Shown here: positions 1-62,588 of the stretch, in pieces | Position numbering within the stretch: the first letter of the stretch is position 1 | Layout: each line of letters opens with the position of its first letter | DNA from: Parcubacteria group bacterium | Lineage (GTDB): Bacteria > Patescibacteriota > Minisyncoccia > Moranbacterales > GCA-2747515 | Assembly (NCBI GenBank): GCA_041660065.1 | Contig: JBAZXC010000002.1 | Coordinates: 240,768 to 304,767 of the forward strand | Reading direction: 5' to 3' | Length of the DNA stretch: 64,000 bases | Notes under the pieces: model-generated | Told to the model about the DNA's origin: nothing | The model's input: only the letters and a program-made list of their open reading frames with translations | Database searches by the model: none | Position numbers and translations under genes: made by a program

Positions 1-3000
1 AACTTGTTGCACCGATTGGCGCATCGGAGACAATATGATATGCATATGCCGTTCCTTGCGCACCACTACCGGATTCTGTATACACAAAATTTCCCGCTGC
101 ATTCAATGTAATATTGGATGTCGTGCCGCTGCTACGATACAACGTCACATTTGCTGTACTACTCGATGCAAGACTCAATGTACCGCTTGCCACACCATAC
201 AATTCATATCGCCCGGAATCCTGCTCCAAGGCAAGCGCAGTCGGATACATGATAAATGAATTATCCGCAGACGCTTGATGAAATCCCAAGATTGGTTGAT
301 CAGAAATAATGCGAAATGCCCGCCCATTGATAATATCTTGCGTGACGGTAATCACAGAATCCGCACCCACCGATACGGTTTGTAATGTCGTCCATCCGGT
401 TGTACTGCTTTGCTGGATCTGCACGCTCGCACCAGAAAACGGCGCGTAGAAACTAAACACATCCGTGCCCGCATCCACACGATAAACAAATTCCGTACCA
501 GCATACGATATTGGAATTGCAGAATCTGTGGCATTGCCGGTAAATCCTATCGAAAGCGGTCCTGTCACGTCATATGAGTCATATTGATCCACGCCAATAG
601 CATACGGCAATGTCACCATTTCTCCTTCGTCCAAGCGTCGCGTTGTCACACCATCACTGACATCATTACCATCACGAAATGAGATCACCACCATTTGTTG
701 CACAGCACTAAGTGAATCTACGATATAATAATTTGGCTTTACGGCTTCTGTGTGGAAAATCGCATTATAATCGCCTGTCGATTCAAGCGGATCGCCCAAA
801 TATGTGACACGCACGCACTCAAGCTCCGGACTCATCAACACATCATCTGATTCAAAATCCACATGATATTGGACGTATTGATTATCCGTTTGATTACTGA
901 TCGATGAGATCGGATATGTAAGCGTGCTATTTGTTTCTTCTGCATAATACGTACCTGCGGTACCATCCGGACCGACAAATGTCTCTCCGCTACATGCACT
1001 ATCATTACAACTTCGCACCGTGAACTTGAGACGATTCGCACCACGACGATATTGATCATAAACCTCTGTCGGACTCATGATATCACTCCAAAAAGCCACA
1101 TCGTCAAGACGACCCCGATACCATCCGTGTGAACCGGCGGAATCATAAATACGACCGATACTATTGAAATACTGCGTTTTGATCCCTGTTTCCGATATAC
1201 CGGTCCCTTCCAATACACCATCCACATATACCTCCACAGCGCCACTTACATGATTGCGCGTTAAAGCCACATGATGCCATGTGCCATCATTGATCACTGT
1301 CGTGCTCTGTGTGCCTGTCGTGTTTCCCGCTTGAATCGCGATACGACCTGTCGAAGTAATGTATCCCCAAAAAACATCGTTACCCGTACTCGCTTGCTCG
1401 GAACCCGTTATGCCTGGCGCAGTCCATGGCACATCTGCACCGGTTTGCGTTGTATTCATCCAAAAACTCACGCTTCCCGTGCCACCGATCACCGTGCTGA
1501 GATCCTGTCCAAAATCCACAAAATCATCCACGCCGTCAAAGCCAAGGGACGTATTAAATCTCCCAGATTGACTCCATAGCGCCCCATTATATGTCCCATC
1601 ATTCGTTACGCCAGACGTATTGTCGATCGTGCCGCTGCTTTCATTGAGATGCACGAGAAATAGATTTGTACTCATATCCACATCTCCATCGCCATAATCC
1701 ACTTCTTCCCCGAGATTGTTTGGCAATTCCTTAAATGTCGGGTAATTGGAAATCCATGTAAGATCGATCCATGAAGCAAGTAACCCCGCATCAAAAACTT
1801 CTGATTGGTATTCTCCTATACCCGCCGTAAGGCCTGCGCTTGTCAGCTCCGTCCACTCATCAGTGCCGTCCCACTGCGTTTCGTCATATGTACCTTCGTT
1901 AAATTCCGATTCGTTACATGTCTGCAGAGTCAAAACTGGCTGAGAATAAATATAAAATGTTGTTGTCGTACTGGCGGCAACCGTTGGCACCTTTGCCCAG
2001 ATTGTACCCGTAGAGCTGGCCCCATTATATTCTTCCAGTGCATATGGGATACCATCACTCCCATCTCCTGCGCCACCAGCAACACGAATATCGCCACCAT
2101 CAGATTGTGCAATAGCAAAAAGCGCAGATGCATCCGTTGCGACATTAACGCGCACTTGATAATCAGTGAGTGTAGCGGTAGACGTATTTGTGATCGTCAC
2201 AGGAATACGTCGTGACCATTGTTGTGTAATGCCCTCCACATCCCAACTACCGGATTCCACTACACCAACGCTCTGCGACACACCGTATTGAAATTGTCTG
2301 TTTTGTTTTTCATTGAGAATATTGTGCTCATCATTTTGTGTCGCGTATTCATAATATGCCGCAATCGGATGATCAGCGACCACGCATGCACCAGCAGCAA
2401 TATTTGCGCCATCAGTTGTCGACCCAAAATACACCTTGCCTGGATAATTACCCGTTGGCGTAACTGTGGATGTCGCACTTGGCACACCTACACCACACTG
2501 CGTTCCATTGTTGTAGAGATTTACTGTTGTTGAGATACCAGCACGCGTCGAAACAGCAAAATATTGCATCGCCTGTGGCACATAATAACGATATCCCATC
2601 TCGTTAACTGGGAGAAATGTCTGCATTTCCGCACCATCCGTGTCATTGTTGCCGTTTACACCGATCGGATAATTTGATACCGCGCGCATGGCGTTTTCAG
2701 AGCCCTCCGACCCTGCAACGGCAAGATATACATTTTGTCCACGATTCAAATTATATGTGGCTGAAGTATTATTGCTATAATAAACGTTGATTGTCGTACC
2801 ATTTGTGATTGCTGCAAGCTCCATATTACCGGATGGGACACCATACCATTCCGTCGCCGCAGGGATCAGTGGCATACTTGCCTCACTTGCGGTTGAGTGA
2901 TGTGTTCCCATGATTGGACATCCGTTTGTTACTTCCACCATCACTGCACTGTCATTTGCAATACCGGTTGCCGCATTGTTCGTTGTGGTGAGATTATAAA

Positions 3001-14305: not shown

Positions 14306-14306
14306 G

Positions 14307-14378
14307 AGCGAGTGAGCGGAATCGAACCGCCGTTTCTACCTTGGCAAGGTGGTGTAATAACCATTATACGACACTCGC
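14307..14378 (-). tRNA. tRNA-Gly (GCC)
   Basis: Hand-folded cloverleaf. Acceptor GCGAGTG/CACTCGC, U8, anticodon loop TTGCCAA, T-loop TTCGATT, discriminator U. CCA not encoded. Confidence 0.75.
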
Positions 14379-14385
14379 CTGCCAA

Positions 14386-14455
14386 AATTTTTTATTCTTA
14401 TAAAAAACTTAGGCAGGCGCGCCCACATTAATTTTTTATTCTTATAAAAAACTTA
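14386..14455. repeat. Tandem 26-bp direct repeat (AATTTTTTATTCTTATAAAAAACTTA x2) immediately upstream of tRNA-Gly; probable duplicated promoter element
   Basis: Copies at 14386-14411 and 14430-14455. The minus-strand reading contains TATAAG about 20 nt upstream of the tRNA 5' end. Confidence 0.55.
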
Positions 14456-14509
14456 TGCGGACTCACTTGTGTTTTTTGATTTTTAACTTATAATTTTTGA
14501 TTTTATACC

Positions 14510-14581
14510 GTGGGACTAGCAGGGTTCGAACCTGCGACCAAGCGGTTATGAGCCGCGCGCTCTACCGCTGAGCTATAGTCC
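14510..14581 (-). tRNA. tRNA with CAT anticodon; probably tRNA-Ile2 (lysidine) rather than elongator or initiator Met
   Basis: Cloverleaf GGGACTA..CTCATAA..TTCGAAC..TAGTCCC-A. G1-C72 is paired and there is no GGG/CCC anticodon stem, so it is not an initiator. Variable loop TGGTC and T-arm resemble E. coli ileX. tilS is present in the window. Confidence 0.7.
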
Positions 14582-14611
14582 CCCACCAATCATGCTAGTC
14601 ACTCCAATATT

Positions 14612-15337
14612 CTATATGGTTTTTTTCATCTCGTCAATCCATCCAATCAATTCAAAAAACAACCGTACATTTGTGATCCTTACATGAATAGTGCCATGAG
14701 GTATTGTATTTTTAGCTCTTGTATTCTTACTATTATTTTTTACATGACTGACTTTCATAAAATTTTTTAGAGGTATTTTAGTTATTTTATGCCAATAATC
14801 CATAGATTTTTCTGCGTCAACATTCTTATGCGCAATGATTTGTATCTTCATGTTCTCTTTTGTAATATGAAGAAATTTTTCAAAAAAACGGATCATTATA
14901 GTAATCATTGCAGGATCTGAATTGGCAAAATCAATGCTTTTCCATTTACTGCCATAGGCACCTTTTTTATAGCCCTCTGACCAATACATTGCGACACCTG
15001 CAATAAATAAAGGGTCTTTAGTGTATTTATGGTATTGCAAAGCTGCAAAATCTCGTATCTTCTGGTGTTCCTCTTGAGATTTTTGAGTTTGTTGTCGATT
15101 CCTTTTTATGAGAGCTTTAACACTAGTATCATGTACACGCTTATGTATTTTTTCTTGCGCGAGTTGAGATAATGAAACATCTTTTAACCATGTGCTCAAA
15201 GTACTTTTTGGAATAGTCATTTTCTGAGATATTTGATTATAACTATATCCATTTCTGCGCAATTTTATAGCATCATCTTTGTCTTTTCTCATAAAATAAA
15301 TAGAACCTATAATACTATCAATGTACCATAGGTTCAT
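14612..15337 (-). CDS. Hypothetical HTH-domain protein; possible mobile-element/homing-endonuclease-like gene adjacent to the intron-containing tRNA
   Basis: 241-aa, AT-rich. N-terminal HTH (GYSYNQISQKMTIPKSTLSTWL, IS30/resolvase-like). Start lies 14 nt after the tRNA-Phe 3' end. No clear LAGLIDADG, GIY-YIG or HNH motif. Confidence 0.45.
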   Translation of the reverse strand: MNLWYIDSIIGSIYFMRKDKDDAIKLRRNGYSYNQISQKMTIPKSTLSTWLKDVSLSQLAQEKIHKRVHDTSVKALIKRNRQQTQKSQEEHQKIRDFAALQYHKYTKDPLFIAGVAMYWSEGYKKGAYGSKWKSIDFANSDPAMITIMIRFFEKFLHITKENMKIQIIAHKNVDAEKSMDYWHKITKIPLKNFMKVSHVKNNSKNTRAKNTIPHGTIHVRITNVRLFFELIGWIDEMKKTI

Positions 15338-15351
15338 ATTTATAACAATGA

Positions 15352-15662
15352 TGGTGCCGAGGGAGAGAATCGGACTCTCGACACAAGGATTTTCCTTATA
15401 CTGTCTTATGTTTCCATAAGGATTGGACTATATCATTCCCGCTGAGCGGGATTGGGCGCTATTTGCAGGATTATTGTTGGGACTCACCTGCTAGTCTCTA
15501 CTCCTTCCTTAACACTTTATACCCATTAAGGCTTGGATCGGGATTGTCATAATTCTATAAGAACCGTAGATTTCCCCGAATTCACCCAATTTTTCTCACT
15601 CTATATTGCTATAGAGGGGACCGAAAATTCAGTCCTTTGCTCTACCACTGAGCTACCTCGGC
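15352..15662 (-). tRNA. tRNA-Phe (GAA) interrupted by a group I intron (exons 15631..15662 and 15352..15394; CCA encoded)
   Basis: 5' exon GCCGAGGTAGCTCAGTGGTAGAGCAAAGGACT. 3' exon GAAAATCCTTGTGTCGAGAGTCCGATTCTCTCCCTCGGCACCA. Spliced product folds into a canonical cloverleaf with anticodon loop CTGAAAA. Confidence 0.8.
15395..15630 (-). ncRNA. Group I self-splicing intron (236 nt) in the tRNA-Phe anticodon loop, inserted between U33 and G34
   Basis: 5' splice site follows U, with a U.G pair in P1 (exon GGACU pairs with intron IGS GGUCC). The intron ends in omega-G (..UAUAAG|GAAAA). P2 hairpin CUCUAUA-gcaa-UAUAGAG. P3/P4 core AAAUUGGGUGAAUUCGGGGAAAUCUACGGUUC closely resembles the cyanobacterial tRNA-Leu intron core AAAUUGCGGGAAAGGGGUCAACAGCCGUUC. 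P7-like GAGACUA ... UAGUCC. Confidence 0.8.
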
Positions 15663-15683
15663 TCACTCAAATATTCATTGTTG

Positions 15684-15757
15684 TGCACGCTGAGGGATTC
15701 GAACCCCCGACCCTCTCGGTGTAAACGAGATGCTCTAACCAGCTGAGCTAAGCGTGC
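15684..15757 (-). tRNA. tRNA-Val (TAC)
   Basis: Cloverleaf GCACGCT..TTTACAC..TTCGAAT..AGCGTGC-A. Confidence 0.85.
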
Positions 15758-15978
15758 TTTTTATTGAATAGATCCACCAACTTATTTCATATGAATGTTG
15801 TTTTTTCTTTTATATAATGAATTTTTGACAAAAAACTTCTGTCATTCTGAACTTGTTTCAGAATCTCAAAACTATGGCTTATGTAGATGCTGAAACAAGT
15901 TCAGCATGACATAGATATTAAATGAGATCAACAAATATCATTGTACAATATTTTTTTATTTCTTCCAACCTCTTCTCG

Positions 15979-16062
15979 TGCCCAGAGCGGGACTTGAACC
16001 CGCACACTCCAAAGGAGTCTAGGCCCTCAACCTAGTGCGTATACCAATTCCGCCATCTGGGC
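15979..16062 (-). tRNA. tRNA-Leu (GAG), type II with long variable arm
   Basis: GCCCAGA..anticodon loop TTGAGGG..variable arm ACTCCTTTGGAGTGT..TTCAAGT..TCTGGGC-A. Confidence 0.8.
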
Positions 16063-62431: not shown

Positions 62432-62516
62432 GCCCAGGTGGTGGAATTGGTAGACACGAGGGACTTAAAATCCCTTGGATGAATAATTCGTGCGAGTTCA
62501 AGTCTCGCCCTGGGCA
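62432..62516 (+). tRNA. tRNA-Leu (TAA), type II
   Basis: GCCCAGG..AGGGA-CTTAAAA-TCCCT..long variable arm..TTCAAGT..CCTGGGC-A. Confidence 0.8.
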
Positions 62517-62588
62517 CAAAGTGCCAAAAGGTTTTCAAAATCGTAAAAAGAGGTAAAATATGCATAGGTTCTTTTATATTTTTATGTC

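Follow-up and report, generated by a model that had tools for sequence, protein, structure and literature searches.

A tRNA-Phe gene of a Parcubacteria group bacterium split by a predicted self-splicing group I intron, and the tRNA-linked protein family beside it

Results

The 64,000-nucleotide (nt) stretch of contig JBAZXC010000002.1 analysed here (the window; Parcubacteria group bacterium, assembly GCA_041660065.1) carries on its minus strand a gene for tRNA-Phe(GAA) that is interrupted by a group I intron. The 5' exon (15662-15631; GCCGAGGUAGCUCAGUGGUAGAGCAAAGGACU), recognized in the sequence and by ARAGORN with introns allowed, is 32 nt long, covers tRNA positions 1-33 and ends with GGACU33. 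It is followed by an intron of 236 nt (15630-15395), which starts with GAAUUUUCGGUCC, ends with UAUAAG and is delimited by the Rfam model Intron_gpI (RF00028), by U-1 and omega-G and by the spliced cloverleaf. The 3' exon of 43 nt (15394-15352; GAAAAUCCUUGUGUCGAGAGUCCGAUUCUCUCCCUCGGCACCA) begins with GAAAAUCC and extends from G34 to A73 plus an encoded CCA, ending with GGCACCA. Once joined, the exons form a canonical tRNA-Phe(GAA) cloverleaf of 75 nt with 7/7 acceptor pairs, 5/5 pairs in the anticodon stem, the T-stem and the encoded CCA, and the anticodon loop reads CUGAAAA after ligation. Default ARAGORN called eight tRNAs in the 64-kb window, tRNA-Phe not being among them, and with introns allowed the program reported tRNA-Phe(gaa) i(34,236). 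RF00028 matched positions 15404-15640 of the minus strand over its full length (model positions 1-253) with 79.6 bits (gathering threshold 50, E = 1.4e-18), and this is the sole intron match within the window. An earlier note, made from the letters of the sequence, had proposed the split gene with these boundaries and the CCA and had named the lack of such a match beforehand as its refutation; with a score far above the threshold, the proposal is confirmed. No protein-coding frame was detected in the intron, whose longest stop-free run comprises 51 codons and is antisense, and the intron therefore encodes no protein, that is, it lacks an open reading frame (ORF).

One genome per prokaryotic species was scanned with a pattern consisting of CTGAA, then the P4 core and then the J6/7-P7 core. 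The scan returned 43 loci, 42 of which are tRNA-Phe(GAA) genes split exactly at 33/34 by introns of 203-271 nt. They belong mostly to Patescibacteria, and the host labels include Saccharibacteria, Berkelbacteria, Peregrinibacteria, Uhrbacteria, Moraniibacteriota, Paceibacterota, Magasanikbacteria, Andersenbacteria and Buchananbacteria. The intron closest to that of the window (L029, 81% identity) comes from a metagenome-assembled genome (MAG) of Moraniibacteriota. The 43rd locus (L044) was rejected as tRNA-Phe, being a chance match of the pattern to a tRNA-Arg with an IC3-type intron. Three metagenomic loci (L081, L083 and L084) hold a tRNA-Phe split at 33/34 by introns with a start other than GAA; the ARAGORN calls for them, Leu(caa), Ser(gga) and Pro(agg), respectively, are wrong. 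Boundary-shift miscalls thus affect tRNA-Phe as well, and the GAA-anchored pattern undercounts the family. At locus L034, a second group I intron (2250-2465, minus strand, 83.6 bits) directly follows the tRNA-Phe intron at the position of tRNA-Met in the array, and ARAGORN mis-calls it as Leu(caa) i(36,627). This second intron holds an ORF of 121 amino acids (aa; 2484-2849, plus strand) that runs counter to the tRNA and has an HNH-like motif (CxxC...HH...N...CxNCH).

For comparison, the window copy was aligned with 40 of the scan loci and the published Doudnabacteria copy (n = 42), with L030 and L042 omitted because they are cut by the locus end. The U-1.G pair and the terminal omega-G are present in all 42 sequences. 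The explicit structure is 92.3% paired on this alignment, versus 30-53% after a shift of the 3' partners by 1-3 columns; two-sided changes occur at 39 of the 58 pairs, and none of 500 shuffles attained any of the observed measures. Covariation is found in P1, P2, P3, P6a, an extra hairpin, P8 and P9, while P4, P6 and P7 are invariant and hence uninformative for or against the structure. The guide tracks its exons, with UUUUC-GGUCC accompanying GGACU-GAAAA and UCUUC-GGGC accompanying GCCU-GAAGA, and P10, a helix of 4-6 base pairs (bp), shows covariation with the 3' exon (GAAAA/UUUUC versus GAAGA/UCUUC).

In the window copy, where intron position n lies at window coordinate 15631-n and all elements lie on the minus strand, P1 (15618-15635) pairs the exon sequence GGACU (15635-15631) with the intron sequence GGUCC (G9-C13, 15622-15618) and places a U33.G9 wobble at the 5' splice site. 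P10 is formed by GAAAA(U) of the 3' exon (15394-15390) and UUUUC, (A3)U4-C8, of the intron (15627-15623), so that the guide 5'-UUUUC-GGUCC-3' stands opposite the ligated exons GGACU-GAAAA. P1 with its U.G pair, the splice site after U33 and the terminal omega-G had already been placed correctly in the earlier note. The P2 hairpin (15-21/26-32; 15599-15616) is capped by a GCAA tetraloop of the GNRA type, shows two-sided changes at 7/7 pairs and is 96% paired. In P3 (41-46/175-180), the 5' strand AUUGGG (15585-15590) pairs with 15451-15456, and UA and CG replace each other at two pairs (22:19 and 24:15). P4 (51-56/89-94; 15575-15580 with 15537-15542, overall 15537-15580) encloses P5/P5a within positions 61-84 (15547-15570) and is followed by P6/P6a (95-128; 15503-15536), which has a loop with a conserved GGG and covariation at 7/7 P6a pairs. 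P7, which is in a pseudoknot with P3, comprises G133, the bulged A134 and 135-139, paired with 201-206 (15492-15498 with 15425-15430, UAGUCC), and its 5' strand (G-A-GACUA) is invariant in 42/42 sequences.

Between P7 and the 3' strand of P3, the intron contains an extra P7.1-like hairpin (15465-15491) with a 5-bp stem (140-144/162-166), covariation at 5/5 pairs and a conserved loop of 17 nt, UGAGUCCCAACAAUAAU. The 3' strand of P3 (15451-15456) is succeeded by the P8 hairpin (181-185/189-193; 15438-15450; together 15438-15456), and the remainder (15395-15430) consists of the 3' strand of P7, P9 with a GAAA tetraloop (211-216/221-226; 15405-15420), a tail and omega-G236 (15395). P9 is absent in 13 of the 42 aligned introns (L003, L004, L006, L016, L019, L022-L024, L026, L028, L033, L040 and L045), in which omega-G lies only 8-13 nt past P7; the lineage can thus dispense with P9. 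RNAfold, applied to the window copy alone (-66.4 kcal/mol, z = -2.67), missed the P7 pseudoknot but recovered all other helices. The GGG of the P6a loop (107-109, 15522-15524) can be matched with a CCC in the extra hairpin (150-152, 15479-15481) and is 92% paired with it across the alignment, with few compensating cases, namely GGA/UCC (L024), GGC/GCC (L041) and GGU/GCC. A tertiary contact between the two loops is possible and is offered as a lead only.

The split gene belongs to the minus-strand tRNA array Leu(GAG)-Val(TAC)-Phe(intron)-[ORF]-Met-Gly(GCC) (14306-16062), which is collinear in relatives. The ORF in this array (14612-15292, minus strand) encodes a protein of 226 aa that is 100% identical to the NCBI entry MFA5986436.1 ('hypothetical', locus tag WC819_03760); its start is most likely the conserved MRKDK, which gives the stated length. 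A terminator-like hairpin with a T-run (15303-15335, minus strand) separates tRNA-Phe from the ORF and is kept together with it in L012 and L035. The spacer between tRNA-Phe and tRNA-Met in the collinear array measures 47 nt in L005 and 742-769 nt, with hairpin and ORF, in L012, L035 and the window. Given this difference among close relatives, the ORF forms a discrete cassette that is either present or absent.

Of the 42 loci selected by the intron, 24 contain homologs of the ORF protein (28-54% identical). In all but one of these 24, the homolog lies immediately next to tRNA-Phe and on its strand, upstream in about half and downstream in the rest. The ORF is absent at no fewer than 12 well-flanked intron-bearing tRNA-Phe loci, that is, with at least 850 nt of flank on both sides and no homolog anywhere in the 8-kb locus. 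For the reverse test, 80 metagenome loci were chosen by the protein alone, and those flanked by 450 nt or more on each side (n = 51) were evaluated. The gene abuts a tRNA in every case: a split tRNA-Phe in 39, an intact tRNA-Phe in 8 and an intact tRNA-Glu(UUC) in 4. Hence, 39/47 ORF-linked tRNA-Phe genes are split, versus 1/95 complete Patescibacteria genomes with a split tRNA-Phe in the published survey (Nakagawa et al., mSystems 2026, PMC13011429, Table 1). Two more family members, retrieved by protein search, lie about 60 nt from a split tRNA-Phe. The intact tRNA-Phe genes next to the ORF showed no consistent difference around 33/34 of the kind expected for a resistant target site. No motif decay was seen in ORFs beside intact tRNAs, which is uninformative because the scan was seeded on the motif LYW[AG]EGYK. 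In Magasanikbacteria, a GIY-YIG ORF of 87-104 aa (L047-L049, 2209-2523, plus strand) is located just upstream of tRNA-Ala, the split tRNA-Phe and the ORF of this family.

The protein belongs to a family of more than 1000 members, which are named only 'hypothetical' or 'HTH domain-containing' (HTH, helix-turn-helix). Its AlphaFold model (predicted local distance difference test, pLDDT, 88) consists of an HTH, a helix of 48 residues and an alpha/beta domain. E106-G107, invariant in 33/33 and 22/22 sequences, is positioned at the end of helix 94-110, the first of the alpha/beta domain. LAGLIDADG enzymes have a catalytic acid where their motif helix ends C-terminally, and WhiA has lost the LAGLIDADG catalytic residues. 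Searches of Pfam and PHROGs with 33 members at permissive E-values retrieved HTH families only and no LAGLIDADG model, NCBIfam and PDB profile searches likewise yielded HTH matches only, and an assignment of the ORF to LAGLIDADG at the sequence level was rejected for this reason. Foldseek searches against PDB and BFVD returned nothing significant, with only the HTH being seen. The protein may be LAGLIDADG-like by fold, with moderate fold evidence.

Discussion

The locus very probably represents a functional tRNA-Phe(GAA) gene that is split between U33 and G34 by an ORF-less, self-splicing group I intron of a lineage already known from Patescibacteria, as judged from sequence and comparative structure. 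The split gene would be transcribed within the tRNA array, and the guide UUUUC-GGUCC would pair with the 5' exon at its end to form P1 with its U33.G wobble. Exogenous guanosine bound in P7 would then attack the 5' splice site, after which the guide would hold the 3' exon through P10 (GAAAA/UUUUC), omega-G236 would enter the G site and the exons would be ligated to give the CUGAAAA anticodon loop. Guide and core evolve compensatorily across dozens of lineages, which argues for selection for splicing. A related intron in a Patescibacteria tRNA-Asn(GUU) gene at 35/36 (GCA_016700035.1) self-splices precisely in vitro without protein, and a change of omega-G to C blocks the reaction (PMC13011429). 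Given the compensatory evolution and the 73% identity of this spliced intron, the case for self-splicing of the window copy is strong; we infer that the intron is catalytically active and that the split gene is the only tRNA-Phe of the cell.

Several features of the window copy do not sit easily with this interpretation. The outer pair of P4 is a U51.U94 mismatch (15580 and 15537), which is U.G in 40/42 sequences, and the T-loop (15369-15375, minus strand) has the sequence UCCGAUU, in which position 55 is C and not the almost universal U (pseudouridine 55), while the remaining tRNAs of the window carry the normal UUCGA. In addition, the search that found no other tRNA-Phe covered 64 kb of the genome. 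These points would be expected if the split gene were a decaying relic, with a non-splicing intron in a tRNA pseudogene and a working tRNA-Phe elsewhere. However, the core elements are all intact, the acceptor (7/7) and anticodon (5/5) stems and the T-stem are perfect, and C55 recurs in L013, L024, L026 and L084, which represent several separate lineages, so that it appears to be tolerated and not a sequencing error. Moreover, the compensatory evolution of the family implies selection on splicing, and in the one complete genome known to carry a tRNA-Phe intron at 33/34, that of a Doudnabacteria member, the split gene is the sole tRNA-Phe (PMC13011429, Table S2). Decay is therefore a highly improbable explanation. 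Only slightly less improbable, and still very unlikely, is a dependence of the intron on a protein cofactor, with the adjacent ORF acting as a folding maturase comparable to the LAGLIDADG maturases of some organellar group I introns. The intron-bearing loci that lack the ORF altogether, the protein-free splicing of the related tRNA-Asn intron (PMC13011429) and the occurrence of the ORF family next to intact tRNA-Phe and tRNA-Glu genes speak against it. The intron also has a practical consequence, as default tRNA finders miss the split gene, so that the genome would wrongly seem to be without tRNA-Phe and would score as less complete.

The earlier note regarded tRNA-Phe as an unusual host and 33/34 as an unusual site and held that bacterial tRNA introns are known mainly from Leu, fMet, Ile and Arg. 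Neither view holds. Williams (bioRxiv 2020, 10.1101/2020.01.27.920355) expanded the four classical tRNA-intron settings to 21, a Phe type probably being among them, 33/34 is the classical insertion site of tRNA-fMet, and an intron of tRNA-Phe(GAA) at 33/34 has been listed for Doudnabacteria (GCA_016699995.1; PMC13011429, Table 1/S3), to which our scan adds 42 further cases. The Doudnabacteria intron resembles that of the window in host tRNA, site, phylum, P1/P10 logic and the lack of an ORF, with 71% global identity and a common sequence in the loop of the extra hairpin, GUGAGCCCAACAAUAAUC; it differs in length (211 versus 236 nt), in having no P9, in its guide variant for GCCU/GAAGA and in belonging to another class of Patescibacteria. 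The tRNA-Asn intron of 234 nt shares with the window intron 73% global identity, the core, the extra hairpin with its loop and the GGG of P6a, whereas its host tRNA and site (35/36 instead of 33/34) and hence its guide are different.

A near-identity of the P3/P4 core to that of the cyanobacterial tRNA-Leu(UAA) intron, which had also been claimed, was not borne out; the likeness is generic only. The IC3 intron at 34/35 of Anabaena/Nostoc PCC 7120 is likewise a group I intron of the anticodon loop with U-1.G and omega-G, but of the 32-nt core only the generic 16-nt P4/J4-5 consensus AAYUCRGGGAAAYCUA is matched (13/16), global identity is 62%, the insertion site is another one and the hairpin between P7 and P3' is missing. 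In the compact IC3-type core, P7 is followed immediately by P3', and P7.1/7.2 are lacking; the window intron departs from this, as a 27-nt hairpin is inserted there (a 31-nt insertion in the Rfam alignment). This extra hairpin, absent from IC3 introns, fits the classification of Patescibacteria tRNA introns as IA, with none as IC (PMC13011429), and by its sequence the window intron belongs to this published lineage. The tRNA-Leu(UAA) gene of the window (62432-62517, plus strand), whose cyanobacterial counterpart is the classical intron host, is uninterrupted. The intron is thus of a kind already catalogued in the phylum, and what our scan adds is scale, with at least 42 species-level genomes. 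One strict pattern alone gave 42 loci, and introns at 33/34 of tRNA-Phe are thus far commoner than would appear from the published survey, in which the complete genomes contained one case.

The more interesting point is the large, unannotated protein family that is physically tied to tRNA-Phe genes and strongly enriched at those bearing an intron. In phages, ORF-less introns can be mobilized in trans by a neighbouring endonuclease (collaborative or trans homing), as described for F-CphI with the psbA intron of S-PM2 and for mobE of T4 with the nrdB intron (PMC6083498, PMC2790892, PMC3984707), and phages are so far the only setting in which such homing is documented. By analogy, the intron and the adjacent ORF might form a two-part mobile unit, in which tRNA-Phe genes without an intron would be cleaved near 33/34 by a free-standing endonuclease, and the intron would shield the host copy and undergo co-conversion along with it. 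In both situations an ORF-less group I intron has a candidate endonuclease gene directly outside the interrupted gene; however, the phage systems have phage hosts, other endonuclease families and demonstrated cleavage, whereas the window offers a cellular tRNA gene and a likeness of fold only. We put this proposal forward tentatively and consider it doubtful.

We would give roughly even chances to the ORF being a WhiA-like DNA-binding regulator or another host factor linked to tRNA operons, in which case its association with the intron would reflect shared ancestry in Patescibacteria clades. Such a factor is at least as likely as an endonuclease: most of the genes are intact, members of the family also lie beside intact tRNAs, and the fold provides moderate evidence. 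On the other hand, a regulator of this kind does not readily explain the invariant E-G at the helix end, where LAGLIDADG enzymes have the catalytic acid that WhiA has lost, the presence or absence of the ORF as a cassette within the collinear array of close relatives, its changes of side, upstream or downstream of tRNA-Phe, with adjacency retained, or the excess of split genes among the ORF-linked tRNA-Phe genes (39/47 versus 1/95).

Both outcomes would be informative. Nakagawa et al. sought endonuclease genes inside the introns only and, from their rarity, inferred limited mobility (PMC13011429). If the homing proposal is true, this published inference of low mobility for Patescibacteria tRNA introns without internal endonuclease genes would be overturned, and a new, sequence-divergent LAGLIDADG-type branch with more than 1000 members would be added. 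A free-standing homing endonuclease would also explain how ORF-less tRNA introns spread and persist under strong genome reduction. If the ORF instead encodes a WhiA-like regulator, it would be a new tRNA-operon-linked factor in the phylum.

Some of the host labels in our scan deserve caution. Three MAGs with the same split tRNA-Phe are labelled Bdellovibrionales (L005, L031 and L035) and five Gammaproteobacteria (L027, L032, L036, L037 and L043), all of them from co-assemblies. The tRNA-Leu and tRNA-Val of L005 are 100% identical to those of the Moraniibacteriota MAG L012, in a collinear array. These labels are probably mistaken, with the MAGs likely to belong to Patescibacteria. A recent transfer of the intron between L005 and L012, considered because tRNA-Phe with its intron is 94% identical versus about 76% in the flanks (BLAST), was rejected; the neighbouring tRNAs are 88-100% identical too, and the two are simply close relatives. 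As for the window itself, the placement in a lineage with reduced genomes, which the earlier note had also stated, is right in view of the assignment of the neighbouring protein MFA5986436.1 to a MAG of 'Parcubacteria group bacterium' and of its closest relatives, which are named Moranbacteria or Moraniibacteriota. Further genes of the window, of the G5/DUF348 type and others, are compatible with this placement.
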